Shown: positions 6,149-50,014, counted from the first letter of the stretch. The stretch is DNA of 64,000 bases from an uncultured Actinomycetes bacterium (GCA_963795505.1 CAWCIB010000002.1:7480-71479), one strand, 5' to 3'. Notes: generated by a model from the letters alone, not told the origin. Translations and numbers: made by a program.

Positions 6149-7087
6149 CTAGGCACCAACGTTGATCGACATCGCTGGCATCCCCAGCGGGGCCGGATGA
6201 GGCTCATGAGCGCCGAGTCGAATCGCGGTTCCCAGCACGTGCATGGAGACGATGAAGAAGTGCTGCGCGAAACCGATGCTCTCGTACTCGTGGTGGGCGA
6301 TGTCGTGGGTAAGCGTCGAGATGACCATGTCGTTCGCACCCGCCTGGCGCGCCTGACGCGTCACCTCCTCCATCGCGAGATGGCGAGCCGCGTAGACACC
6401 TTCGGTGACCTCGGTCATCTCCTGGTTACCCCACCAGGAGCGCATCATCTGATTGGCCTGCATGCTGAGCGCCACGGCCACCACTGAGGTATGGCCGATA
6501 ACGCTCAGGGTCTCGGCTCCGATGCGGCGCAGCTTGTCGACGTCCTGAGCGGAGAGCGCGCACATCCGCGGCCCGGGACTGTCGCTCCGGGCAAGCGTGG
6601 TCTCGCGTATGGCGGTGCCGAATACCACGTATTCGACGGTTCCTGGTTCGCCGAGAAAGCTGTTAGTCGTCATCTCGATACCGATCACGGCGTCCGCGCC
6701 GGCGAATTCCGCCTCCTGCCGCAGACGGTCAAACGAACGCTCGCGCGACAGATTCCACGGCAGCGCGAACGACGGCATCTCACGGATCCCTCCCCCGTAA
6801 GAGGACCAGCCGTAGTTCTGCCAGCCGTGCTGCACCACCGAGGAGCCCATGATCTGCGCGATCGGCCTCAGACCGGAGGCATGCGCAATCGCATACTCCT
6901 TGGTGCTCAGATCGCTGCTGAAAACCGGCGAGCTCCGCCTGGCAAGCGTCTTCAGACGTTGTTCCGCTCCGAGCGGAATTCCGCCGCGCTGGATGCGGTC
7001 AAGATCAACTGCGGCCGCCTCGCGCTCTTCTGCGCTGAGCGGTGTCGGACGTTTCCCGAATAGTGGCAACAGCTGATGTTCCCACAT
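6149..7087 (-). CDS. YbjQ/UPF0145 protein with two domains (paralog)
   Basis: FSSDLS motif shared with neighbour; RLRQEAEFAGADAVIG...VFGTAI; ARHLAMEEVTRQARQAGA...VLGTAI. Confidence 0.8.
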   Translation of the reverse strand: MWEHQLLPLFGKRPTPLSAEEREAAAVDLDRIQRGGIPLGAEQRLKTLARRSSPVFSSDLSTKEYAIAHASGLRPIAQIMGSSVVQHGWQNYGWSSYGGGIREMPSFALPWNLSRERSFDRLRQEAEFAGADAVIGIEMTTNSFLGEPGTVEYVVFGTAIRETTLARSDSPGPRMCALSAQDVDKLRRIGAETLSVIGHTSVVAVALSMQANQMMRSWWGNQEMTEVTEGVYAARHLAMEEVTRQARQAGANDMVISTLTHDIAHHEYESIGFAQHFFIVSMHVLGTAIRLGAHEPHPAPLGMPAMSINVGA

Positions 7088-7513
7088 CCCGGCCACCGCT
7101 CAGCTAAATGCGCCACCGCTCCCGTCTGGCGTCACGCGGGTTCCACTGTCGCTTGCCCGATCGCATTGCGTGAGAGCCGGTCTCACCTAGGCCGTTCGCC
7201 TCTTGCGGTACAGGGTGGCCGCATGATCCCGTCGCGTTGCGAGCGTGATTTTGTCGTCGGTTTGCGGGGGCCCAAGGACCGCGACTGCTCGTCGATGCCG
7301 CTCCCGGCAGCCCTTCTATGCGGAGGCATGCGTCGTATTGACACATGGATCCGCAAAGAACGGCGGACCCGGCGGGCCGAGCGCTCCACCCGCCGCGCGC
7401 GTCTCCCTTACCTCACCCGGCCCGGCGCTCGCAACCAACGGATAGCACAAGCCGCATGTGTCATTAGCTGCGAGGATTGTGCGCCCGAAGCAATCGCCCA
7501 AAGGAGGCTCCCT

Positions 7514-7933
7514 ATGGCTGAGTTCCCGGCGCCGAAGGACGGACTACTTCTGACGCATTTCATCGTTTCGAACGACGTCGCGCGCTCGCGCCGGTTCTAC
7601 ACCGAGGTGCTCGGCGGCGAGCTTGTGATGGAGGGCGAGCCAACGATCGTTCAGCTCGCCAACGGCTGGGTGATCATCAACGTCGGCGGTGGCCCGACCG
7701 ACGACAAGCCGGCGGTGACCCTCGAGGCGCCCGGCGATCCGAACCTGGTGAGCAGCTTCCTCAACATCCGCGTGTCGGATATCGCGAAGGTCTACGAGGA
7801 TTGGGGTGCGCGCGGCGCCGAGTTTCTCACTGAGCCGAAGGATCACGGCCGCGAGATTCGCTGCTATCTGCGTGACCCGGACGGGCACCTGATCGAGGTG
7901 GGCCAGGCAACGGGAATCCTCGATAGCCCGTGA
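7514..7933 (+). CDS. VOC / glyoxalase-bleomycin resistance family protein
   Basis: AAGGAGG RBS; VSNDVARSRRFYTEVLG...CYLRDPDGHLIEVGQ. Confidence 0.9.
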   Translation: MAEFPAPKDGLLLTHFIVSNDVARSRRFYTEVLGGELVMEGEPTIVQLANGWVIINVGGGPTDDKPAVTLEAPGDPNLVSSFLNIRVSDIAKVYEDWGARGAEFLTEPKDHGREIRCYLRDPDGHLIEVGQATGILDSP

Positions 7934-33232: not shown

Positions 33233-33347
33233 AGCGGGCGAGAGGACCGCGTCGGCGAGCGCTGGAGTCGCCCGCGGTGTGAACGCTGACGTTCCCCTTG
33301 ACGTCGGATCCACGCGGGTATATATAGAGGGCTCCGGAGGAGAGAAA

Positions 33348-34013
33348 TTGAACGGCAGCGCCAAGCGCTTGGTCGGCGTCGTTGTCTGCACCGTAGTCGC
33401 AGCTGCGGCGATCGGCCTTTACATAGGGCTGTATCTGACAAACGTTCCCGGGTCGGTCGCCGCGACCACCGATGCTTCGGGCGCGCATCTGTACCTCGCC
33501 ACGGTCCCGGCCGCGGAAGCGTCAGATCCCCACAACACGTGGGTGTCGTTCTACGCAGTCGACGCGAATGCGGGCAACTGGCGCCACGACTCGACATACG
33601 TCGTCCCCGCGAACACGGTCCTGACCGTGACGATCTATCAGTACGACTCAGCGTCGGGGCTGCGTAACGAGTTCCTGAGCCAGGCCACCGGGACGCAGGG
33701 CGGGACGTTCGCGCTCGACGGCAAGGCGGTGCCCGACATCGATCCGACGCAGGCCGCGCACGGGTTCGCGGTCCCGCAGTGGGGTCTCTCGGTCCCGCTC
33801 TACGGCGTCTCGACAAGCGCCAAGAATCCTTGTAGTCAGGCGCCCTGCTCGCTGAGCAACGACCATCACACGATCACGTTCACGATCAGGACCCCGGGCA
33901 AGGGCTTGTATCGCTGGCAGTGCATCGTGCCGTGCGCCGCGGGCTTCATCCAGGGCTATGGAGGGCCGATGCAGACGGTCGGCTATATGGGCGGCTTCTT
34001 CAAGGTCGTATGA
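33348..34013 (+). CDS. Membrane-anchored cupredoxin-like protein with H...C-x3-C...M-x5-M motif
   Basis: TTG start after GGAG; N-terminal TM; AAHGFAVP and TFTIRTPGKGLYRWQCIVPCAAG...GPMQTVGYMGGFFKVV C-terminus; stop overlaps the subunit II start. Confidence 0.7.
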   Translation: MNGSAKRLVGVVVCTVVAAAAIGLYIGLYLTNVPGSVAATTDASGAHLYLATVPAAEASDPHNTWVSFYAVDANAGNWRHDSTYVVPANTVLTVTIYQYDSASGLRNEFLSQATGTQGGTFALDGKAVPDIDPTQAAHGFAVPQWGLSVPLYGVSTSAKNPCSQAPCSLSNDHHTITFTIRTPGKGLYRWQCIVPCAAGFIQGYGGPMQTVGYMGGFFKVV

Positions 34014-34855
34014 CAGACCAGCGGCCCCACTGGCGAAATGTCGTGTTGCTGTGGCTGCTGGCCAACGTGATCATGCTGCCGATCGTCGTGTTCGTGCTCG
34101 GCCCCGGGCTACCGCCGGGCAACGGGACGGTCGAGTCTCACGGGCAGGTTGTCGACAACACCGTGCTGCTGACAATGGCGACGCCGTTCGCGCTGGCGGT
34201 GCTCGTCTACTTTGCGTACGCGATCTGGGCGTTCCGTGAGCGTGAGCCAGATGTTTACGTGGACGGACCGGCGGTCCGCGGCCACTCCGGTGTGCAGTTC
34301 TGGTGGCTGATGATCACGACGACGACGGTGCTCATTCTCGCCGCCTACGGTTCTGTCAGGCTGCTGGCCGATGGCTCCGGGGGCGGCCAGGGCCCGAATC
34401 CGATCGGCGTGCCGGCGGCGGCCAAGACCCATGCCCCGCTCCAGGTCCAGGTGATCGGCCAGCAGTGGTTCTTCACCTATCGCTTCCCGGGCTACGGCGG
34501 TGTAGAAACGCGCGACCTCGAGCTCCCGACCGGCACCACGGTCGAGTTCCACGTCACGTCGCTTGACGTCATCCACTCCTTCTGGGCCTACCAGCTCGGC
34601 GTCAAGGCCGACGCCAACCCAGGCATCGACAACATCGCTTACGTGACGACGCGCGGCCCGCTGACGTTCAACGTGCGCTGCGCCGAGCTGTGCGGCGTCT
34701 GGCACGGCTACATGTTCAACTCGGGCGTCGTGGTGCCCAAGGCGCAGTTCGCCACCTGGATCGCACAACAGCAGCAGCAGAACGCCCCAGCGACCAAGAA
34801 CCTGCTGCCGTACTCGAAGCAGTACTTCCCGACCCCGTTGAGGAGGGCTGGATGA
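34010..34855 (+). CDS. coxB: Cytochrome c oxidase subunit II
   Basis: Two TM helices; DVIHSFW and CuA motif CAELCGVWHGYM. Confidence 0.95.
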   Translation: MTDQRPHWRNVVLLWLLANVIMLPIVVFVLGPGLPPGNGTVESHGQVVDNTVLLTMATPFALAVLVYFAYAIWAFREREPDVYVDGPAVRGHSGVQFWWLMITTTTVLILAAYGSVRLLADGSGGGQGPNPIGVPAAAKTHAPLQVQVIGQQWFFTYRFPGYGGVETRDLELPTGTTVEFHVTSLDVIHSFWAYQLGVKADANPGIDNIAYVTTRGPLTFNVRCAELCGVWHGYMFNSGVVVPKAQFATWIAQQQQQNAPATKNLLPYSKQYFPTPLRRAG

Positions 34856-36741
34856 GCACGATCGCCGCCTCTGTGCCGGCCCCGCGCGCGGGCTTCAGAC
34901 AGTTCTTCGGCTTCAACATGCTGACCGGGATCTTGCTCGGGATTGGCGGCTGGTTCCTGGGCTACTTCATCGGCACCCACCTCCACGGGGTCGGGCTGAA
35001 GTACTACACGGCCACGGCCGGCGAGAACGACATCGGGATCATGCTCGGCTACTTCCTCGGCGTGGTCGGCTTCCTCGTTGGCCTCGGGTTCGCGAACTAC
35101 CCGCTCAAGCGGATGCTGGGCCACCCTGCGAGCCTCGCCGAGCGCGAGGCGAAGGAGTTCGGCCTGCTGCGGTACTTCAGCTTGTCGACCGACCACAAGG
35201 TCGTCGCGAAGCAGTACATGGTCGGAATCGGGGTGTTCTTCTTCGTCGGTGGGCTGAACGCGATGCTGATCCGCTCAGAGCTCCTGCAGCCCAACGTGCA
35301 CGTGTTCGGCGCCAACCAGTACCTGACGCTGGTTGGGCTGCACGGCTCGATGATGATGGGGATCATGACCTCGGGGATCCTCGGCCCATTCGCGAACTGG
35401 CTCGTTCCCGTGATGATCGGCGCCCGGCGGATGGCGTTCCCGCGGATCGAGGCGCTCACGTTCTGGATCCTGATGGCCGGCGCGGTGATCCTGATCACGA
35501 CGATCTTCTTCGGGGGCTTCCAGACCGGCTGGACGGGCTATCAGCCGCTCGGCGACCAGGGCACCGCCGGCTACGACGCATACATCGGGTTCTTCTCGTG
35601 CGTCGGCATCTCGATGACGCTTTTCGGCTTCAATCTGGTGGCGACGATCATCACGATGCGGGCGCCCGGGATGACCTGGTCGCGACTGCCAATCTTCGTC
35701 TGGGCTACGTTCGCGACCGCCATCCTGATGATGCTGGCGGCGCCGATGCTCGTTTCCGCGCTGCTTATGGGGGCGATGGACCGCACCGCGCAGACCGCGT
35801 TCTACATCGCCGGTCAGGGCGGAAGCTCATATCTGTTCCAGAACTTATTCTGGGTATTCGGACATCCCGAGGTGTACATCCTGGCGTTGCCCGGCTTCGG
35901 GATCGTGCTGGAGCTGTTGCCCGTGTTCGCGCGCAAGCCGCTGTGGGGCTACCGGCTTGCGGTGGCCGGGTTGCTGGGCGTCAGCCTGCTGAGCTTCTTC
36001 GTCTGGCAGCACCATCTGTTCGTATCGGGCATCAACGCCGACCTGCGGCCGTTCTACATGCTCTCGACCGAGCTGATCTCGCTGCCGACGGGATTCATCT
36101 TCCTGTGCGCGATGGGAACACTGTGGCGCGGGCGAATACGTCTGACGGTGCCGATGCTGTTCTGCTTAGCGTGGGCGTTCAACTTCCTGTGGGGTGGGAT
36201 CTCGGGTGTCTTCAACTCCGACACCCCGAGCGACGTCACCACGCACGGGAGCTTCTTTGTGATGGCGCACTTCCACTACACGATCATGGGCGGGCTCGTG
36301 TTCGCGTTCTTCGCCGGGATCTACTACTGGGTACCCAAGATGTACGCCGTCAAGTTCAACGAGCGGCTGGCCAAACTGCACTTCTGGGTGATGTTCATCG
36401 CCTTTAACTGCACGTTCGCGCCGCTGTTCGCGCTCGGTTTCCTGGGCATGCCACGACGCGTTGTCACCTACCCGGTCAGCTTCCAAGCCCTCAACGACTG
36501 GGTGTCGGTGTCGGCGTACGTGCTCGGGAGCTCGATGCTGATCTTCCTGGTCAACGTGGTCTGGTCGGTAGTGCTCAAGCGCGAGCCGGCGGAGGAGAAC
36601 CCATGGCACGCCAAGTCGACCGAATGGCAGCTCCCGACACCGGTCCCGCTGCACGACTTTGACCGTATCCCACGATTCGAGCCAGACCCCTACCCATACG
36701 GGGTCGAGCCCGCGCCGGCGCTTGCGGGCGGGAGCGAGTAA
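34852..36741 (+). CDS. coxA: Heme-copper oxidase subunit I (A-family, two extra N-terminal TM helices)
   Basis: LHGSMM, GHPEVY, WQHHLF, AHFHY, GMPRR. Confidence 0.97.
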   Translation: MSTIAASVPAPRAGFRQFFGFNMLTGILLGIGGWFLGYFIGTHLHGVGLKYYTATAGENDIGIMLGYFLGVVGFLVGLGFANYPLKRMLGHPASLAEREAKEFGLLRYFSLSTDHKVVAKQYMVGIGVFFFVGGLNAMLIRSELLQPNVHVFGANQYLTLVGLHGSMMMGIMTSGILGPFANWLVPVMIGARRMAFPRIEALTFWILMAGAVILITTIFFGGFQTGWTGYQPLGDQGTAGYDAYIGFFSCVGISMTLFGFNLVATIITMRAPGMTWSRLPIFVWATFATAILMMLAAPMLVSALLMGAMDRTAQTAFYIAGQGGSSYLFQNLFWVFGHPEVYILALPGFGIVLELLPVFARKPLWGYRLAVAGLLGVSLLSFFVWQHHLFVSGINADLRPFYMLSTELISLPTGFIFLCAMGTLWRGRIRLTVPMLFCLAWAFNFLWGGISGVFNSDTPSDVTTHGSFFVMAHFHYTIMGGLVFAFFAGIYYWVPKMYAVKFNERLAKLHFWVMFIAFNCTFAPLFALGFLGMPRRVVTYPVSFQALNDWVSVSAYVLGSSMLIFLVNVVWSVVLKREPAEENPWHAKSTEWQLPTPVPLHDFDRIPRFEPDPYPYGVEPAPALAGGSE

Positions 36742-37376: not shown

Positions 37377-38189
37377 ATGCTCTCCCGCTGGTCGCTCGAT
37401 CCGGGTCTCGTCTACGTCGTGATCTCGGCGGTGTTGTATGCGCTCGGCGCGCGCGGCCGCTTGAGGCCCAAGCCGCTCGAGGCGGTCTCGTTCTATGCCG
37501 GGCTTGTGGCGATCGTGGTCGCGCTCGACTCACCGATCGACTCCTATGCAGATCAGCTGTTCTGGGTCCACATGCTCCAGCACATACTGCTGCTGACGAT
37601 CGCGCCTCCGCTGATCCTGCTCGGGCGTCCGTGGCCGCGGATGTGGCGAGCGCTGCCGCTCGGCCCTCGCACGTCGCTGGCACGGACCGTTGCACACGCG
37701 CGCTGGGCGGCGCCGCTCCGCGGGCTCTCGCACCCCATTCCGGCGTGGATCCTGTTCAACGCGACCGTCATCGGCTGGCACATTCCGGCCGCCTACGACG
37801 CGACGCTCACCAACGGCGCCGTCCATGCCGTCGAGCACGCGATGTTCTTCTTCGCGGGGCTCCTGTTCTGGGCACGCGTGATCGATCCTGGCCCGTTGCG
37901 CCCCAGGCTCGTGTGGCCGGTGCGGGTCGCATACGCGGTCGGCGCGATGGTCGTGGGCTGGGTGCTCGCGATCACGCTGGTCGTGGTGCCCCACGCGGTC
38001 TACGGCTACTACGCTGCGCTTCAGACGCGCCCCGGCGGTATCAGCGCGGTCACCGACCAGCAGCTGGCCGCCGGCATGATGTGGGTCCCCGGATCGCTCT
38101 CATACACGATTACTTTCCTGATCGGCTTCTACCGCTGGCTCGAACCGGATCATGCGGGTAGCGGGCCGCGGCCTGCAGTCACTACATGA
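37377..38189 (+). CDS. ctaG: Caa3-type CtaG cytochrome oxidase assembly protein
   Basis: LFWVHMLQHILLL.IAPPLILLG, WHIPAAYD, HAVEH...GLLFW, DQQLAAGMMW. Confidence 0.9.
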   Translation: MLSRWSLDPGLVYVVISAVLYALGARGRLRPKPLEAVSFYAGLVAIVVALDSPIDSYADQLFWVHMLQHILLLTIAPPLILLGRPWPRMWRALPLGPRTSLARTVAHARWAAPLRGLSHPIPAWILFNATVIGWHIPAAYDATLTNGAVHAVEHAMFFFAGLLFWARVIDPGPLRPRLVWPVRVAYAVGAMVVGWVLAITLVVVPHAVYGYYAALQTRPGGISAVTDQQLAAGMMWVPGSLSYTITFLIGFYRWLEPDHAGSGPRPAVTT

Positions 38190-38199
38190 GGAGGAAAAT

Positions 38200-38403
38200 G
38201 TGCCAATGATCCCAATCGCAGCCTTCCTCGCCGGCTCACTTCTGACGCTGCTGCTGCCCACTGGCATGCTGATTGCGCTCGCTATCTGGTACACGGTCAC
38301 GGTGCGTCGTGCGCCGGAGGCGGCGGATCTGCCGCAGGATGAGCCGGTTCTCGAAAGCCCCCTGGTCGACAGCGGCTCGGGGACTCCGCGCGGCCAGGAC
38401 TGA
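38200..38403 (+). CDS. Small single-TM protein, possible oxidase accessory subunit
   Basis: GAGGAGG RBS; hydrophobic N-terminal helix then acidic tail; 10 nt after ctaG. Confidence 0.65.
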   Translation: MPMIPIAAFLAGSLLTLLLPTGMLIALAIWYTVTVRRAPEAADLPQDEPVLESPLVDSGSGTPRGQD

Positions 38404-42834: not shown

Positions 42835-42904
42835 GAGCGCAATCGTATTCAGCTGACACCGGAGCGCGTCAGGCGGCTTGAACGCCGCGGCTAGGCTAGG
42901 ACAC

Positions 42905-44557
42905 ATGAGCGAGCAGCGGCGCGCCAGGATCCTGGTCGTCGACGACGAGCCGGCGGTGCTGGCTGCCGTCGCACGAGATCTGCGAGGCAAGTTCGGTGAG
43001 CGATACCGGATCGTGCGCGCCGGCTCGGGCGAGGAAGGGCTCGATGTCCTACGGGAGCTCGTGCGCCGCGGCGAGCAGGTGGCTCTCCTGATCGCCGATC
43101 AGCGCATGCCCGGCCTGTCCGGGACCGAATTCCTCGTACAGGCGCGCCAGATCGTTCCGACGGCTAAGCGCATGCTGCTCACGGCGTACGCCGATACCGA
43201 GGCCGCGATTGACGCGATCAACGAGGTCGATCTCGATTACTACCTGCTCAAGCCCTGGGACCCGCCAGAGGAGAAGCTGTTTCCGGCCGTCGATGACCAG
43301 CTGCATGTCTGGGAGGCCGGTGCCGCACTCGAGTCCGGCGGCGTTCGACTGATCGGCCACCGCTTCTCGCGCTCGACCCACGAGCTGCGCGATTTCCTCG
43401 CCCGCAACCAGGTCCCGGCGCGCTGGCTGGATGTCGAGCGCGACGCCGAAGCCCGTCAGCTGCTCAAGGTGGCGGGCGTCGAGGACGACCGGCTGCCGGT
43501 AGCGCTAATGGAGGACGGCCATGTGCTCGAGCGCCCGACGGTGCTCGAGCTCGCCGAACGGCTCGGCGTTGCCGGCCAACCCGCGTCCGAGCACTACGAC
43601 CTCGTGATCGTCGGCGGCGGGCCCGCGGGCCTGGCGGCCGCCGTCTACGGGGCTTCCGAGGGACTGAAGACGATCATGGTCGAGCGCGAGGCGCCCGGCG
43701 GCCAGGCCGGGCAGTCGAGCCGGATCGAGAACTACCTGGGCTTTCCGCGCGGACTGAGCGGCTCGGAGCTGACTCAACGGGCCACGATCCAGGCGCGTCG
43801 TCTCGGCGCCGAGCTCCTGACACTCCAGGACACGACGGCCTTGCGCGTCGAGGGAGCGGGGCGGATCGTCGAGCTCGCCGACGGCGGCACGCTCAGCGCC
43901 TCGAGCGTGCTGATCGCCTCAGGCGTCTCCTACCGCCAGCTCGACACGCCCGGTTTCCCGGAGCTGACGGGACAGGGGATCTATTACGGGGCCGCGGTCA
44001 ACGAGGCGCGCGATTGCCGGGACCAGCACGTCGTGGTCATCGGCGGTGCCAACTCGGCGGGCCAGGCGGCGGTGTATTTCTCGCAGTGGGCCGGACGCGT
44101 GACGCTCCTCGTGCGCGGCGACTCGCTCGAGAAGTCGATGTCGCACTACCTGATCGAGCAGATCAGCGCGCTCGACGGGGTCGAGGTTCGTACCCACACA
44201 GAGGCCATCGGCGCCGAAGGGAACGGCCATCTGGAGACGCTGAGGATCCGCAACGGAGATGGGTCGGAGTCGGTCGAGAAGGCCGATGCCTGCTTCGTGT
44301 TCATCGGTGCGCGGCCGCTGACCGATTGGCTCGAGGGCGTTGTCGCCCGCGATGAGCGCGGCTACATCCTCGCGGGCCTCGACGTCAAGCAGGCCGCCTG
44401 GCCGCTGGCCCGCGACCCGTTCCCGCTCGAGACCAATGTGCCTGGGGTGTTCGTTGCGGGCGACGTACGGGCCCGCTCGATCAAGCGCGTCGCCAGCGCC
44501 GTCGGCGAAGGATCGATGGCCGTGTCGCTTGTTCATCAATATTTGGCGGAGGCATGA
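42905..44557 (+). CDS. Response-regulator receiver fused to thioredoxin-reductase-like FAD oxidoreductase
   Basis: VVDDEP, IADQRMPG, LLKPW; GGGPAGLAAA, SSRIENYLGFP, GGANSAGQAA, VFVAGD. Confidence 0.93.
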   Translation: MSEQRRARILVVDDEPAVLAAVARDLRGKFGERYRIVRAGSGEEGLDVLRELVRRGEQVALLIADQRMPGLSGTEFLVQARQIVPTAKRMLLTAYADTEAAIDAINEVDLDYYLLKPWDPPEEKLFPAVDDQLHVWEAGAALESGGVRLIGHRFSRSTHELRDFLARNQVPARWLDVERDAEARQLLKVAGVEDDRLPVALMEDGHVLERPTVLELAERLGVAGQPASEHYDLVIVGGGPAGLAAAVYGASEGLKTIMVEREAPGGQAGQSSRIENYLGFPRGLSGSELTQRATIQARRLGAELLTLQDTTALRVEGAGRIVELADGGTLSASSVLIASGVSYRQLDTPGFPELTGQGIYYGAAVNEARDCRDQHVVVIGGANSAGQAAVYFSQWAGRVTLLVRGDSLEKSMSHYLIEQISALDGVEVRTHTEAIGAEGNGHLETLRIRNGDGSESVEKADACFVFIGARPLTDWLEGVVARDERGYILAGLDVKQAAWPLARDPFPLETNVPGVFVAGDVRARSIKRVASAVGEGSMAVSLVHQYLAEA

Positions 44558-45969
44558 GCGCGACGGCAGTGACACTCCACGATCTACGACGGATCGATCT
44601 GTTCGACGATCTCGACGACGACGAGCTCGCCAAGTGGGTGGAGGTCGCGCAGTGGCACGAGGCCGAAGCCGGCGGGGTGGTGATCGAAGGGGGACACGAA
44701 CCCGACGGCCTCATATGCCTGCTCGAAGGCATCCTTCAGATGCAGGTGCCCGACGGGCAGCGGCTCCAGGTGGTCGGGCGCCAGACGGCGCCAACGTGGA
44801 TCGGGGCCGTCCCGACGCTCACCGAGGCAAAGGTCGCCGCGCGCATGATCGCGGTCACCGATGTGCGCTGGGCGCTGATCCCAGCGGTCGAGTTCCGCCA
44901 CCTCGTGCTCGCCAATCCGGACCTCCACCAACGGATCATGCGCCAGGTCGGACCAGTGGTCAGGCGCATAACCGAGATGGAGCAGAACAGGGAGCGTCTG
45001 GCTGCGCTCGGCACGATGGCCGCCGGCCTGGCGCACGAGCTCAACAACCCGGCCGCGGCGGCGCGCAGCGCCGCGGGTCAGCTCTCCACAGCCCTCCAGG
45101 TGATCGGCTCGACGTTGCGGGAGTTCGTCCAGGCCGGTGTCGAGCGCGAGGACGCAGCTCGGATCGCCGACCTTCGCGATCAGGCGGTGAGTCAGGCTGC
45201 CGCGCGCGAGGAGTTCTCGGGCCTTGAGGCATCCGACGCCGTCGACGACATGCTCGACCGCCTCGAGGCGATGGAGATCGGGGGCGCGTCGCAGATCGCC
45301 GAGCCCCTGGCGCTCGCGGGGGTCGATCAGGAGTGGCTCGACAAGGTCCAATCACTCGCCGGACCCGCCACTCCCGCCGCGCTGCGGTCGGTCGCCGTGT
45401 CAATCGACGCCCAGAAGCTCGTCGACGAGCTGTGTGAGTCGACCCAGCGCATGAGCTCGCTCGTCGGCGCCGTCAAGGCCTACGCATACATGGACCGCGG
45501 TGGCGTCGTGAAGGTAGACATCCACGAAGGGCTCGACACGACGCTCACCATCCTTCACCACAAGCTCAAGCACACAAAGATCGCGGTCAAGCGCCAGTAC
45601 GACCGCAGCCTTCCCCAGCTCATGATCTACGGCTCAGAGCTGAACCAGGTCTGGACCAACCTGCTCGTCAACGCGATCCAGGCGCTCGGCCAGAGCGGCA
45701 CGATCACGATTGCCACCGAGCGCGATGGCGACTGCGTCCTTGTGAATATCTCCGACGACGGCCCCGGAATCCCCGAGGACGTCCGCGAGCGCGTGTTCGA
45801 ACCTTTCTTCACGACCAAGGGCGTGGGCGAGGGCACTGGCCTCGGCCTCGACACCGCCAAGCGGATCGTCGAGGACCGCCACGGCGGCTCGATCACGTTC
45901 GACACGGGCGAGCACGGCACCAGCTTCCATGTCTGGCTTCCCATCAAAGAAACGGAGAAGGCGAAATGA
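44554..45969 (+). CDS. cNMP-binding domain sensor histidine kinase
   Basis: N-terminal cNMP-like domain; LAHELNNP, NQVWTNLL.NA, DDGPGI, FFTTK, GTGLGL. Confidence 0.93.
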   Translation: MSATAVTLHDLRRIDLFDDLDDDELAKWVEVAQWHEAEAGGVVIEGGHEPDGLICLLEGILQMQVPDGQRLQVVGRQTAPTWIGAVPTLTEAKVAARMIAVTDVRWALIPAVEFRHLVLANPDLHQRIMRQVGPVVRRITEMEQNRERLAALGTMAAGLAHELNNPAAAARSAAGQLSTALQVIGSTLREFVQAGVEREDAARIADLRDQAVSQAAAREEFSGLEASDAVDDMLDRLEAMEIGGASQIAEPLALAGVDQEWLDKVQSLAGPATPAALRSVAVSIDAQKLVDELCESTQRMSSLVGAVKAYAYMDRGGVVKVDIHEGLDTTLTILHHKLKHTKIAVKRQYDRSLPQLMIYGSELNQVWTNLLVNAIQALGQSGTITIATERDGDCVLVNISDDGPGIPEDVRERVFEPFFTTKGVGEGTGLGLDTAKRIVEDRHGGSITFDTGEHGTSFHVWLPIKETEKAK

Positions 45970-46283
45970 GTGGCTGTAGCCACCTGGACACGATCACTGT
46001 CTTCGAGCTCCCCGAAAGCGTCACCGGCTGCGAGGACTGTCTGCGCGAGGGCAGCGTCTGGATGCACCTGCGGATCTGCCTGAGCTGCGGTCACGTCGGG
46101 TGCTGCGACGACTCGCCCAACAAGCACGCCAGCGCTCACCACCACGACTCCGGCCACGCGCTGATCCGCTCGCTCGAGCCCGGCGAGGATTGGAGCTGGT
46201 GCTTCGAGGACGAGCTGGCGATGCGGATCACCGACATCCGCGGCGAGACTCGGATCCCGCCCTCGCCGATGCTCAGCGGCTGA
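45966..46283 (+). CDS. UBP-type zinc finger protein
   Basis: CSH...CEDC...LRICL.CGHVGCCD.SP.KHA..H...H...EDW.WC. Confidence 0.92.
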   Translation: MSGCSHLDTITVFELPESVTGCEDCLREGSVWMHLRICLSCGHVGCCDDSPNKHASAHHHDSGHALIRSLEPGEDWSWCFEDELAMRITDIRGETRIPPSPMLSG

Positions 46284-46881
46284 CCTGTCGCCTGAGGCGC
46301 AGCGCGAGCACACCGCCCGCGACGAGCACCGCGACGACTCCAAGCGCAATCGGGAGCGCCGCCGAGCCGCCGCCGCCTCCGCCGGCCGTGTCCGATGTGT
46401 GGCCGATCGGGTGTCCCGCCGCCTTGGCCAGCCGCGGCACGGCGGCGATCGCCGCTCGGACCAGATCGTCGCTTTGTGTACCGGTTGGCTTCGGGAGCGA
46501 GATCGTCGGTAGCCCCCGCGTTCCGTATCCGTCGGACATCACGACCAGCAGCGGTGCGCGCGCGACGACAAAGCTCAGCTCCTGGTAGAGGAACTTGGCG
46601 TACGTCTGGGGCTTGCCGAAGAAGCTCGGCACGGCGCCGAGGTCGGTCGGGGAATCGATCAGCGCGATTTTGATCGGGAAGTGGGCGCGCTGGGCGGCGA
46701 TCGCCTCCGCGTTGAGCGCCTTCGCGAGCGCGGTCGAAACGGGAGGGCTGTATGGGTAGAACACCTGGGCGCCGAGCAGCACGTCGCTGGCGGGGTCCGC
46801 GTCGGCGAGCGCTGTCGCCGGGAGCACCGCGAAGAGCGCCGCCGCGATGATCGCCGACAGCCCCCTAGCCACCGAACGCAT
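46273..46881 (-). CDS. Exported, C-terminally anchored hypothetical protein (D.DPASD family, paralog A)
   Basis: Signal peptide ...PATALA|DADPASDVL; C-terminal TM plus RLRR. Confidence 0.75.
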   Translation of the reverse strand: MRSVARGLSAIIAAALFAVLPATALADADPASDVLLGAQVFYPYSPPVSTALAKALNAEAIAAQRAHFPIKIALIDSPTDLGAVPSFFGKPQTYAKFLYQELSFVVARAPLLVVMSDGYGTRGLPTISLPKPTGTQSDDLVRAAIAAVPRLAKAAGHPIGHTSDTAGGGGGGSAALPIALGVVAVLVAGGVLALRLRRQVSR

Positions 46882-48433
46882 AGCTCGCGATGTCCCCGTC
46901 GAGCGTCCCTTGCGACACGTACTGGCCCGTGTGTACGTACGCGACCTTGCCGGTCCGGCCGATGAAGACTGTCGTCGGATAGCCGATCACTCCGCCGGGG
47001 ACGATCGAAGGGAGGTTGGTTCTGCTGGCCTGGTAGCTCGGGTAGCTGACCAGGTGGGCCGCGAGGAACGCGCGCGCGTCGCCGGAAGTGTCGTCGGTGT
47101 CGGCGCCGAGGAATGCGACCTGGCGGCCGTAGCGGGTAGACGCCGAGGCAAACAGCCCAAACTCGGCCTTGCACGGCGGGCACCACGATGCCCAGACGTT
47201 GAGCACGATCGGGTAGCCCTTGAGCGCTCGGATCCGCGCGGCGAGCGCGGGCTCGCTGCCGAGCAGTTGGCTTGACTGGTCGTGAAGGCCGGCCAGCAGC
47301 GGCGGTGAGCCGGCGAGCGCCGCCTTGGCGTTCGCGGGCGGTCCGGCCGCGCGCGCAAGGGCCTCCTTGACCCGGGCGACGAGCTTGGCCTCGGTTGGCC
47401 AGCCCAGCGTGGAGACGTCGTAGTACCAGGCGATCTGCCCGCTCGAGGACGTGACCATCAGCCACGGCAGATCCTGGACCTCGTAGCCGTCGCCGAGGCG
47501 CCCGTCCCGATCGCTTGCGATCGCATAAGGCAGCGGACTGCGCCATGTGGTCTCAAAGCGCTGGAGCGCTCCTGGTGGCTCGACGCTGGTCTCGTCTATC
47601 GCCTCGACCCGAGGCAGGCCGTGGGTGCGCGCGAACGCGTCGTAATGGGCGAGTCCCTCAAGGCCCGCACGCAGCGAGGTGACCTCCTGATCCCAGGTTG
47701 CAAAGAACAGATACAACCGCGGCGGCCCCGGCCGCGGCGCGATCCCCTTGATCCGGGTGTAGCTCAAACGCGAATTGACGGGCGGGCGGGCCGGCAAGAG
47801 CGTCGAGATCTCCTGAGCGACGACCTGCCCGAGCTGCCCCACGGCCGCGTAGGACTGCTGGGTCACATACAGCCGGGCGAGGTGTCCGTTCGGCCCGATC
47901 ACGAACAGCGCCGGCGTATGGTCGATCTGCCCCGCATTGATCGCGACATCTATGCCATACGCCTTCCAGACGCGCTCGAGCTGCGGACGCGGCGCGGTCA
48001 GGAACTGCCAAGCGTGGAGCATGCCGTGAAGTTCCGAGTAGGAGAACACGTCCTTCACGGCGGTCGCGGTCGGATTAGCGTCGATGCCCAGGAGTTGCAC
48101 GCTCCGCCCGGCACGCCCGAGCATCGCCTTGGCGTCGAGCATCGCGGTCGTCGTGAGCGGGCAGATCGTCGTGCACTCGGAGTCGTTGAAGGCCAGCACT
48201 ACGACCTTGCCGTGGAACGAGCGGAGCGACACGGGGTGCCCGAACTGATCGGTGAGCGTGAAGTCGGGCGCGGGTCGCGACAGCGGCGTACCTGGGTCGA
48301 GGTAGGGGTTGCTGGCCAGGCCGGCGTTGGACGAGGTACCCGCCGTCCCCGCCACGATCAGCGCGACGATCGCGGCGACCACCACGACGGCGAGCCCGCT
48401 GGTAACCGCGATCCTTGGGCGCCCGAATCTCAT
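46865..48433 (-). CDS. SCO1/SenC domain + degenerate thioredoxin domain + TlpA-like redoxin
   Basis: N-terminal anchor; DFTLTDQFG, CTTICP (CxxxC), IDHT; central FFATWD; WASWCPPC. Confidence 0.88.
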   Translation of the reverse strand: MRFGRPRIAVTSGLAVVVVAAIVALIVAGTAGTSSNAGLASNPYLDPGTPLSRPAPDFTLTDQFGHPVSLRSFHGKVVVLAFNDSECTTICPLTTTAMLDAKAMLGRAGRSVQLLGIDANPTATAVKDVFSYSELHGMLHAWQFLTAPRPQLERVWKAYGIDVAINAGQIDHTPALFVIGPNGHLARLYVTQQSYAAVGQLGQVVAQEISTLLPARPPVNSRLSYTRIKGIAPRPGPPRLYLFFATWDQEVTSLRAGLEGLAHYDAFARTHGLPRVEAIDETSVEPPGALQRFETTWRSPLPYAIASDRDGRLGDGYEVQDLPWLMVTSSSGQIAWYYDVSTLGWPTEAKLVARVKEALARAAGPPANAKAALAGSPPLLAGLHDQSSQLLGSEPALAARIRALKGYPIVLNVWASWCPPCKAEFGLFASASTRYGRQVAFLGADTDDTSGDARAFLAAHLVSYPSYQASRTNLPSIVPGGVIGYPTTVFIGRTGKVAYVHTGQYVSQGTLDGDIASYAFGG

Positions 48434-48440
48434 CGCTCTA

Positions 48441-49430
48441 TCAAAGCGCGACCGCAGCGGCGGGGGCCACCTCGCGCTCGTCGTAAAGGCGGAACACCAT
48501 CAGGACCAGGCTCGCAGCGCAGCCCAGCGCCAGCACCGCGGCGGTGCGGGCCACAAACGCCGGCACGGCGATCAGCACGAAGCCGTTGGTCAGGGTCGGA
48601 ATCAGCTCAAGCCCTTCCCAGAGCGCCACGACTGCGATCACGAGGTACGAGAAGAAGCCGGGGCGTCGAAACGCAACGTGGATAAGTCCCCATGCAACGA
48701 AGACGAGCACGAGCACGAGCTCGATCAGCTGACCGACCGAGACGGATGGGCGTCCATGGAGTCCGAGCCCGACAGCCGCGACCGCGATGGCGGCCAGGGC
48801 GGCGAGAGCGAGCATGCGGGCGATAGCGCGGTCGAGCGCCGCGTTCTTGACACGCCAGGCCGCGAGCATGCACAGAATCAACACCGCGATCGGCCAGAAC
48901 CAGACGATCGATGGTGCGCCCGCGTGCCACAGCCCGCCTGTGATCGCGCTCAAGCTGCCGTTGACCAGGATCGGTACGCGCCAGGTGCCGACAAACGATG
49001 CTCCAGGCGCCAGCGCGACTGCCGCTAGGGCATGCAGCCGGCCGTCGTGCCAGCGGTACTGGTGCGCGTTGGTCACCATCCGCCACTCCGGGGGCGTCTG
49101 CGGGCCGAGGCTGGGCGGCGGTGTCTGAGCGACCGGGCTCTGGTTGAGGTAGTACATCGCCGAGTTGTGGTTGACCTCGACGCCCGCCGGCGAGAAACGC
49201 AGATAAGGGGCGCCGCGGTAGTCGAGCACGACGACTGTGTCGGAAGCCGGTGCGTGCAGCCACATCAGCTGGTCGCCGTCGATGACCTTCGCACCCAAGC
49301 CGGGCGGAATGGCTTGGGCCCGCGCTTGGTAGTCGAGCCCGACAGGCGCGATCGGTCCGTGCGCCTGCGCGGCGGCCGGGAGTGCCAACATCACCAACAG
49401 TGAGCCGATCGCTACCGCGCGCCCTCGCAT
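48441..49430 (-). CDS. Exported/membrane hypothetical protein with predicted mature N-terminal His
   Basis: Signal ...LPAAAQA|HGP; YRWHDGRLH motif; about five C-terminal TM helices. Confidence 0.75.
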   Translation of the reverse strand: MRGRAVAIGSLLVMLALPAAAQAHGPIAPVGLDYQARAQAIPPGLGAKVIDGDQLMWLHAPASDTVVVLDYRGAPYLRFSPAGVEVNHNSAMYYLNQSPVAQTPPPSLGPQTPPEWRMVTNAHQYRWHDGRLHALAAVALAPGASFVGTWRVPILVNGSLSAITGGLWHAGAPSIVWFWPIAVLILCMLAAWRVKNAALDRAIARMLALAALAAIAVAAVGLGLHGRPSVSVGQLIELVLVLVFVAWGLIHVAFRRPGFFSYLVIAVVALWEGLELIPTLTNGFVLIAVPAFVARTAAVLALGCAASLVLMVFRLYDEREVAPAAAVAL

Positions 49431-50014
49431 TGCTCGCCATGTTGGCACTCGTCGCCGGTCTCTCAGCCGGTCCTGCTCGAGCCGACGGCGACCCAGCCTC
49501 GGACGTACTCGCGACGCAGTCGCTGTTTCTGCCCCAGGACGCAGGCGTCCCGGCAGGCCAGCAGGCGCAGCTTCAGGCGCTGCTCGGCGAGGCCGGGCGC
49601 GCCGGTTATCCGATTCGCGTGGCGCTGGTCGCCTCAGCAACGGATCTAGGCTCCATCACCGCCCTCTGGCGCCAGCCGCAGCTATATGCAAGGTTTCTTG
49701 GCCAGGAACTGTCGCTCGTCTACCGCGGCCCCCTGGTGGTCGTGATGCCGACCGGCATCGGCGTGTACAACGCCCATCTTTCGAGCGCCCCTGGCGGATC
49801 CGGCCTCGCAGGCGCGGCCGAGGCCGTCGTCATACGCCTTGCGGCTGATGCCGGCCACTCGCTGGCGACCCCTTACGCGCCGCTCTCGAGGGGGAGGAAC
49901 CGGAGCGACGCGACGCCATGGATCGCGTTCGCGATCGGCGCGGCGCTGGTCGCCCTGGCTTGGGGCTTGAGCCTCCGGGCGCGTCCGCTGCGCCTCAGTG
50001 CAGGCGGATCTTGA
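49400..50014 (+). CDS. Exported, C-terminally anchored hypothetical protein (D.DPASD family, paralog B); start 49400 or 49439
   Basis: ...GPARA|DGDPASDVL; shares PI..AL..S.TDLG, PQ.YA.FL.QEL and VVM..G.G with paralog A. Confidence 0.75.
   Translation: MSRSLPRALALLAMLALVAGLSAGPARADGDPASDVLATQSLFLPQDAGVPAGQQAQLQALLGEAGRAGYPIRVALVASATDLGSITALWRQPQLYARFLGQELSLVYRGPLVVVMPTGIGVYNAHLSSAPGGSGLAGAAEAVVIRLAADAGHSLATPYAPLSRGRNRSDATPWIAFAIGAALVALAWGLSLRARPLRLSAGGS

Follow-up and report, generated by a model that had tools for sequence, protein, structure and literature searches.

Membrane-anchored cupredoxins that associate with oxidases, such as AcoP, sulfocyanin and auracyanin, are already known. In their hosts, rusticyanin, auracyanin and sulfocyanin are associated with the membrane and donate electrons to terminal oxidases. 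On the side of copper supply, Sco uses a C-x3-C motif together with one His, and PCuAC uses His and Met ligands in a cupredoxin-like sandwich. Sco and the proteins PCuAC/PcuC and CtaK all act on subunit II of the oxidase (CoxII) at the outer face of the membrane. The closest described system is AcoP, the 'acidophile cytochrome c oxidase partner' of Acidithiobacillus ferrooxidans (PDB 7Z3B), a single-domain cupredoxin anchored by a transmembrane (TM) helix, which binds the oxidase and cytochrome c and whose genes are located in cox clusters, just before coxB (AcoP papers). Its copper is coordinated in a mononuclear green type-1 site consisting of His85, Cys159, His166 and Met171 with the pattern C-x6-H-x4-M, and the variant H166A is a Cu(I) protein (AcoP paper). 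The role of AcoP is still debated, with proposals of an electron donor and/or a protective, chaperone-like factor (AcoP papers). A preprint on the evolution of the oxidases groups the K-channel-less COX1 of acidophilic Fe oxidisers with COX1 from metagenome-assembled genomes (MAGs) of Actinobacteria and Chloroflexi, and reports a cupredoxin gene 'cup', which is taken to be AcoP, just before COX2 in the rus operon of Acidithiobacillus (COX-evolution preprint). Here, we have analysed a stretch of 64,000 nucleotides (nt) from an uncultured Actinomycetes bacterium, hereafter termed the window, in which the gene of a membrane-anchored protein of 221 amino acids heads an operon encoding a haem-copper oxidase. 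We refer to this protein as CUP, and residue numbers correspond to its sequence.

We consider it likely, from its sequence and from a structure model, that CUP is a copper-binding, stoichiometric partner of the oxidase. What appears to be new, as far as the sequences tell, is the invariant His-Cys2-Met2 set of candidate ligands, its apparent derivation from CuA, the large size of an unannotated family, and the strict coupling of this family to an A-family oxidase that lacks the K-channel lysine and carries an N-terminal extension. No description of either the family or its combination of ligands was found in the literature.

A conserved set of candidate ligands in a predicted cupredoxin domain

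Searches with the single CUP sequence against Pfam, NCBIfam and the PDB gave no match. When 37 members of the family were compared with Pfam at E<=1, we obtained scattered noise involving 23 families, where Cupredoxin_1 (0.02) and COX2 (0.032) were matched by one member each and PCuAC (PF04314) and SCO1-SenC by none of the 37. The fold was approached with AlphaFold on a diverse alignment, and the resulting model (pLDDT, the predicted local confidence, of 88; pTM, the predicted global score, of 0.81) replaced a first one that was based on 35 close homologues (pLDDT 75). It shows an N-terminal helix comprising residues 3-31 followed by a β-sandwich. In a Foldseek search of the PDB, the top 50 matches of this model are all copper cupredoxin domains with rusticyanin as best match (E 6e-5, probability 1.00). 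Other matches are Thermus laccase, NirK, the CuA domain of N2O reductase and auracyanin, as well as subunit II of ba3, caa3, plant, yeast and mycobacterial oxidases; AcoP is not found among the top 50. The first, weaker model gave a like picture. On the strength of these models, we assign CUP to the cupredoxin superfamily with its Greek-key β-sandwich. In the model, H138 is located in the strand 136-142, C192 directly follows the strand 186-191 and M214 directly precedes the strand 215-220. The three residues thus occupy canonical cupredoxin positions, namely within a core strand, where the penultimate strand ends and where the last one begins, respectively.

The sequence motifs containing these residues are AHGF (H138), TFTIRTPGKGLYRWQCIVPC (C192-x3-C196) and GPMQTVGYMGGFFKVV (M208 and M214), to which the window protein adds CSQAPC (C162 and C167). 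Their conservation was counted in 120 intact sequences, which include the window protein, about 30 diverse representatives (29-50% identity, other phyla included) and genes from related loci; many 50%-level representatives, frameshifted fragments from high-GC assemblies, were excluded. H138, C192, P195, C196, M208, M214 and G216 are invariant (120/120), and W190, G205, G206, P207, G212 and Y213 are nearly so. Residues 192-221 show a mean column identity of 0.90, compared to 0.71-0.77 in the rest of the sandwich, and the two methionines are always separated by five residues. In the window protein there is no Glu between C192 and C196 and no His from C192 to the C-terminus, and across the family the loop following the cysteines does not contain any conserved His. 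Three further histidines of the protein, H62, H80 and H173, were rejected as ligands, as they are variable outside the close clade.

A reading of this stretch that was made from the sequence alone had described a membrane-anchored protein of 221 residues that heads an oxidase operon and whose C-terminus follows a cupredoxin pattern, with a non-standard site containing a C-x3-C motif without Glu, no second His and two Met. The open reading frame (ORF) at 33348-34013, the predicted helix 3-31 and the succession of coxII, coxI, a coxIII-like gene and ctaG further downstream agree with this description, all of the named site features are found in the sequence, the model supports the fold with matches exclusively to copper cupredoxins, and the invariance of H, C, C, M and M extends down to about 30% identity. 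The non-standard character of the site also held up. Judged by its residues, the site fits neither the type-1 definition, because the loop lacks a His, nor that of canonical CuA, because there is one His only, nor that of Sco, because of the fold.

A different outcome was obtained for the CSQAPC pair, which the same reading had listed with the site. Although present in the window protein, it is a feature of neither the site nor the family: both cysteines are found in 101 of the 120 sequences and both are missing in 19, with no case of one alone. Because the two are present or absent jointly, they probably form a disulphide in an optional, lineage-specific loop outside the metal site. This behaviour of one Cys pair could be extended to the other in a scenario where CUP would be a metal-free structural subunit, a degenerate paralogue of CoxII that contains a C192-C196 disulphide and stabilises or shields the oxidase. 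The absence of the canonical second His would be in line with such a role, exported proteins of Actinomycetota are often disulphide-bonded, and subunit II of quinol oxidases provides a precedent for cupredoxin domains without copper. It would, however, leave unexplained why H138, M208 and M214 are invariant in 120/120 sequences at canonical positions and why conservation peaks in the ligand loop, and we regard it as improbable.

Relationship to CuA domains and AcoP

Alignment of the CUP family with the neighbouring CoxII family in HHalign resulted in a score of 36.1 (E 1.7e-4, probability 49.5%), with scores of 11-25.7 for one reversed and eight column-shuffled controls, and a HMMER search of local CoxII sequences with the CUP profile was marginal (E about 0.01). 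In the HHalign register, the CUP segment SH138tF is paired with IHSFW, which holds the CuA His of CoxII, C192-f-v-P-C196-G with the CuA Cys pair in C-A-E-L-C-G, and G-Y-M214 with the axial Met of CuA in H-G-Y-M. The position of the second CuA His is occupied by V211, which is Val, Leu or Ile in nearly all members, also Thr, Met or Arg, and never His, and it is directly preceded by an insertion of about 11 residues that ends in the invariant GGPM208. The simplest evolutionary reading of this alignment would be that CUP is a diverged paralogue of a CuA-type cupredoxin, which has given up one of the terminal His and acquired a loop that carries a Met.

CUP shares with the CuA domains of CoxII and N2O reductase the cupredoxin fold, and, in the HHalign register with the neighbouring CoxII, the N-terminal His, a C-x3-C motif followed by Gly or Ala, and Gly-Tyr-Met. 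The resemblance extends to the architecture of ba3 subunit II, one of the Foldseek matches, which likewise consists of one TM helix and the domain. The differences concern the second terminal His, which is part of C-x3-C-x3-H in CuA but is replaced by Val, Leu or Ile in CUP, the additional GGPM loop between the Cys pair and GYM, and the lack of a Glu between the cysteines. Moreover, CUP is encoded by a separate gene next to that of a complete CoxII.

When PDB sequences were searched with the CUP profile, AcoP was the best match, albeit a weak one (E 0.019, 17.9 bits), followed by auracyanins and NirK. In this alignment, H138 and C192 coincide with the His and Cys ligands of AcoP. Like AcoP, CUP is a single-domain cupredoxin that is anchored by a TM helix at its N-terminus and has an unusually long ligand loop, and its gene directly precedes coxB/coxII, so that the analogy to AcoP drawn in the sequence-only reading is supported. 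Unlike AcoP, it displays the pattern C-x3-C-x(7-18)-M-x5-M (x11 in the window protein) without a loop His, and its hosts are Actinomycetota and Chloroflexota of neutral soil instead of acidophilic Proteobacteria. By analogy, we view CUP as the positional and architectural counterpart of AcoP on a related oxidase, with a different metal site.

Rusticyanin is the best structural match of CUP, and auracyanin was recovered in both sequence and fold searches. Yet these proteins and sulfocyanin contain the type-1 set of His, Cys, His and Met that is not found in CUP, whose linker is short and not long and flexible as theirs, so that CUP is probably no mobile shuttle. A single homologue (P0119) shows in residues 8-45, which contain only the TM helix and linker, a sub-threshold match to the Pfam family SoxE_N, the N-terminal region of sulfocyanin (E 1.6e-5, 25.1 bits at a cut-off of 27). 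This match may be compositional, and the window protein has none to this family. Sco1/SenC proteins, finally, differ by their thioredoxin fold and are encoded by separate genes in CUP loci. A chaperone of the Sco type, one form of the copper chaperone that had been envisaged from the sequence, is not supported: the predicted fold is that of a cupredoxin, and Sco genes of their own reside in or near most of the operons.

Linkage to one oxidase subtype

Homologues of CUP form 2,039 clusters at 90% identity, every named one of which is annotated as 'hypothetical protein', while those close to CUP bear the label Solirubrobacteraceae. A profile search of a 50%-identity library retrieved 604 representatives (343 at E<=1e-10), and a scan of species-representative genomes identified at least 593 confirmed loci, the best 80 of which are all from Solirubrobacterales/Thermoleophilia-type MAGs. 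Distant members with 29-40% identity are found in Ktedonobacterales (Chloroflexota), in unclassified Actinomycetota and in one MAG labelled Streptosporangiaceae. No paralogue of CUP was found elsewhere in the window.

We compared 86 related loci, comprising those of 80 Solirubrobacterales-type genomes and one further locus (L001), all characterized by tblastn, and five loci from distant lineages characterized by gene calls (L082-L086; L082 from Ktedonobacterales, L083 and L084 from Actinomycetota). CUP is located directly upstream of coxII in 86/86 of these loci, and the order CUP-coxII-coxI-coxIII-ctaG is kept in the 80 genome loci and L001. In detail, two contigs end right after coxII, and L083 and L084 contain an intervening ORF of 56 amino acids. 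Intergenic gaps are mostly between -4 and 30 nt. The genes sco, ctaA and ctaB are variably present either downstream or upstream of the operon, and separate Sco genes are found in or near most operons. In L086, where ctaG is on the other strand and sco upstream, CUP is still joined to coxII-coxI-coxIII. The divergence of CUP is comparable to that of CoxII (50% vs 50-54% identity in L078-L081), and the full CuA motif is found in the CoxII of 81/83 loci, with the remaining two appearing frameshifted. In the window, the stop codon of CUP is shared with the coxII start in an ATGA overlap at 34010-34013, and a second such overlap connects coxII and coxI at 34852-34855. By these two successive overlaps, CUP is coupled to coxII and coxII in turn to coxI, which suggests that the three proteins are made in matched amounts.

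The oxidase itself is of a particular kind. Its CoxI remains below the trusted cut-offs of two aa3 models, the general one and the actinobacterial one. It keeps the motif GHPEVY, which carries the D-channel Glu. Its 'PTGFIFL' aligns to 'PTGIKFF' of M. smegmatis CtaD, whose Lys is the K-channel lysine; in related loci this position is Ile, Thr or Val and never Lys. An N-terminal extension of about 100 residues, which looks like two extra TM helices, is kept also in distant lineages (L083, L085 and L086). The lack of the K-channel Lys in the CoxI associated with CUP is a further likeness to AcoP-type oxidases, in line with the grouping described above (COX-evolution preprint).

An association with the oxidase may also be reflected in the membrane anchor. 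Because K6 and R7 precede the TM helix, the N-terminus should be inside and the domain on the outer face, where the CuA domain of CoxII is also located. Within the helix, the outer half, GLYIGLYLxNVPGS, is kept in close relatives, with a column identity of 0.77 for residues 21-31 compared to 0.44 for residues 8-20, which suggests specific packing. In the model, the first β-strand begins about five residues past the end of the helix. The short linker, together with the conserved outer half of the helix, argues for a domain that is fixed or docked instead of acting as tethered shuttle. A lipoprotein anchor was considered and rejected, as the sequence contains no lipobox and C14 is not a conserved residue.

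Genes of redox proteins were observed next to several of the distant operons. In L083, a CcdA-type DsbD_TM protein and a thioredoxin/AhpC-TSA protein (6284-7668) are encoded divergently from the CUP-cox operon, and Redoxin genes adjoin the operon in L085 and L086. These neighbours fit a need to keep the extracytoplasmic ligand cysteines reduced. In at least two related loci (L001, 6112-7837; L085, 6588-8517), a two-component system consisting of a HisKA kinase and an OmpR-type regulator is divergent from the operon, at a position where the window contains a transketolase gene and the gene of a PadR regulator.

Proposed role of CUP

In the mechanism that we propose, CUP would be an accessory subunit of an A-family haem-copper oxidase and the counterpart of AcoP in Actinomycetota and Chloroflexota of neutral soil. 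It would be made together with CoxII by virtue of the ATGA overlap and held by its TM helix and very short linker outside of the membrane, on the side of the CuA domain of CoxII. The predicted site would retain H138, C192, C196 and M214 from CuA, with the second His exchanged for V211 and M208 contributed by the inserted loop. This His-Cys2-Met2 site would bind copper, most likely as a two-copper, thiolate-bridged, CuA-like centre, from which the fixed protein would pass electrons on to CuA in CoxII. Copper binding, the number of coppers, the physical association with the oxidase, and the existence and direction of electron transfer are what we infer here. A role as electron relay into the CuA of CoxII, possibly via a CuA-like dinuclear centre, is the one that we favour, if tentatively, because the CUP gene stays with those of the structural subunits and occupies the first place in the operon, and because the protein preserves the ligand register of CuA. 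The more specific proposal of a natural CuA-type dinuclear centre in which one terminal His is replaced by a loop Met, and hence of an oxidase with two thiolate-bridged copper centres in series on paralogous subunits, we regard as unlikely.

Several observations weigh against an electron relay. The ligand loop is poorly predicted, with a pLDDT of 53-59 over residues 191-210 and below 50 for residues 197-202, which may reflect the missing metal, true flexibility or novelty, and the distance between C196 and M208, although usually 11, ranges from 7-18 residues across the family. Redox sites of cupredoxins are usually rigid, whereas loops that are flexible and rich in Gly occur more typically in proteins that transfer metals. 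The sequence lacks the exposed C-terminal His that usually serves cupredoxins as electron port, and a Cys2-Met2-rich site would, by comparison with the H166A variant of AcoP, strongly favour Cu(I). Additionally, the CuA of CoxII is complete, so that the need for a second relay site is not evident, the window yielded no upstream electron donor for the oxidase, and similarity to AcoP (E 0.02) as well as to CoxII (HHalign probability 49.5%) is weak.

Some of the same properties would be expected of a Cu(I) chaperone or guardian that docks to apo-CoxII by means of its CoxII-like fold and delivers or protects the CuA copper alongside Sco, in a relationship similar to that of CCS with SOD1 and with a function analogous to that of PCuAC/PcuC or Bacillus CtaK. 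The ligand set is rich in thiolates and thioethers and without a second His, the usual exposed His port is absent, and the Gly-rich loop of variable length is modelled with low confidence. CoxII already contains a complete CuA, and neither CUP nor the scanned genes of the operon gave a match to a PCuAC-type family. The operons are rich in the assembly genes CtaG, Sco, CtaA and CtaB, with a CcdA/thioredoxin pair in some loci, and for AcoP itself, whose H166A variant binds Cu(I), a chaperone-like or protective role has been proposed. Conversely, CUP heads the operon and is coupled to coxII in translation, whereas the known assembly genes are found downstream or change their place, and most operons already have a Sco gene within or near them. 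The CoxII-like degree of conservation and the kept half of the TM helix suggest a stoichiometric, docked protein, with which a resident chaperone subunit would still be compatible. We hold a chaperone function to be less likely than not, but a close rival to the electron relay.

The pair of cysteines beside a conserved Pro, C-x-x-P-C, brings to mind yet another activity, in which CUP would be a thiol-disulphide oxidoreductase that keeps the cysteines of CuA or Sco reduced, akin to TlpA on another scaffold, and in one distant locus a divergent CcdA/thioredoxin pair is indeed found next to the operon. However, the fold is that of a cupredoxin and not of a thioredoxin, the spacing is C-x3-C and not C-x2-C, the invariant His and Met would have no explanation, and dedicated thioredoxin or Redoxin genes are already nearby. 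We therefore give this possibility hardly any credence.

Gene features and surroundings of the operon

The features of the CUP gene and the oxidase operon are compiled in Table 1. CUP starts with the codon TTG at 33348 and ends with TGA at 34011-34013. The GC content at its three codon positions (0.59/0.52/0.84, in a window with a GC content of 65-70%) is that of a typical real gene. The putative promoter upstream of the gene is AT-rich in surroundings of 68% GC and is located 21 nt before the start codon. A scan with the consensus did not call it, because its -10 element lacks a T at position 6, and a promoter and terminator scan of the operon gave nothing above chance. The hydrophobic ORF following ctaG, for which no Pfam family was matched, could be a small subunit of the oxidase. 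A search of sequencing runs matched only soil metagenomes, with at most 11% of the words in each, and no RNA runs were among the matches.

Table 1. Positions of the CUP gene, its predicted functional elements and the adjoining oxidase genes in the window.
Feature	Position	Strand	Basis
Possible promoter TTGACG-N17-TATATA	33298..33326	+	In the 115-nt gap after the transketolase gene; suggested by sequence only
Shine-Dalgarno sequence GGAGGAG	33336..33342	+	5 nt before the TTG of CUP, read from the sequence
CUP gene, membrane-anchored cupredoxin of 221 amino acids	33348..34013	+	ORF, homologues, structure model
Codons of the N-terminal TM helix, about residues 8-31	33369..33440	+	AlphaFold helix 3-31
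H138 codon	33759..33761	+	Core-strand His, 120/120; counterpart of the N-terminal His of type-1 and CuA sites
C162-SQAP-C167 loop, optional Cys pair	33831..33848	+	Conservation count
Predicted ligand loop C192-IVP-C196 ... GGP-M208-QTVGY-M214	33921..33989	+	Most conserved part of CUP
coxII, 281 amino acids, complete CuA motif CAELCGVWHGYM	34010..34855	+	Pfam COX2, TIGR02866
coxI, 629 amino acids, A-family	34852..36741	+	Pfam/NCBIfam matches, alignment
coxIII-like membrane subunit, 208 amino acids	36745..37371	+	Weak Pfam COX3 match; position kept in all loci
ctaG (Caa3_CtaG family), cytochrome c oxidase assembly factor	37377..38189	+	Pfam PF09678, E 7e-57
Small membrane ORF directly after ctaG	38206..38403	+	tblastn, same position in ~30 related loci

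The operon is preceded by a transketolase gene, a PadR regulator and purine-biosynthesis genes and followed by genes for a HAD hydrolase and a GH65 phosphorylase. The oxidase genes thus form a self-contained block headed by CUP. At a distance of 9 kb from the operon, a fusion of Sco1/SenC and Redoxin is encoded on the minus strand (46865-48433), flanked by the genes of two proteins without annotation. The first (46273-46881) is 42% identical to a paralogue encoded at 49475-49984 on the plus strand, and the second (48441-49640) has an apparent signal peptide, a predicted mature N-terminus that begins with HGPIAP and an apparent C-terminal TM bundle. The region 46273-49984 may constitute a copper-handling module, and in many related genomes a Sco fusion of this type is located right after the oxidase operon. 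Elsewhere in the window, a response-regulator receiver domain fused to a pyridine-nucleotide-disulphide oxidoreductase (42878-44557) and a histidine kinase with a cyclic-nucleotide-binding domain (44554-45969) form an unusual signalling pair.

Discussion

Natural copper sites for electron transfer fall into very few classes, namely type 1, CuA and a handful of variants, and new variants are instructive on how the properties of copper are tuned. If CUP binds copper, either the CuA family would gain a variant in which a His is exchanged for Met, or a cupredoxin-based copper chaperone for Gram-positive-type oxidases would be added to the known assembly factors. Should the dinuclear reading be true, it would establish a new class among the natural copper sites and a novel architecture for the entry of electrons into haem-copper oxidases. 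With about 2,000 clusters and a presence in at least 593 species-level genomes, the CUP family occurs in Actinomycetota and Chloroflexota that are abundant in soil, and it is tied strictly to a single subtype of oxidase. Its function bears on the debated role of AcoP-type 'oxidase partner' proteins, and on how electrons or copper are supplied to a second, non-canonical aa3-type oxidase in bacteria without a known soluble cytochrome c.

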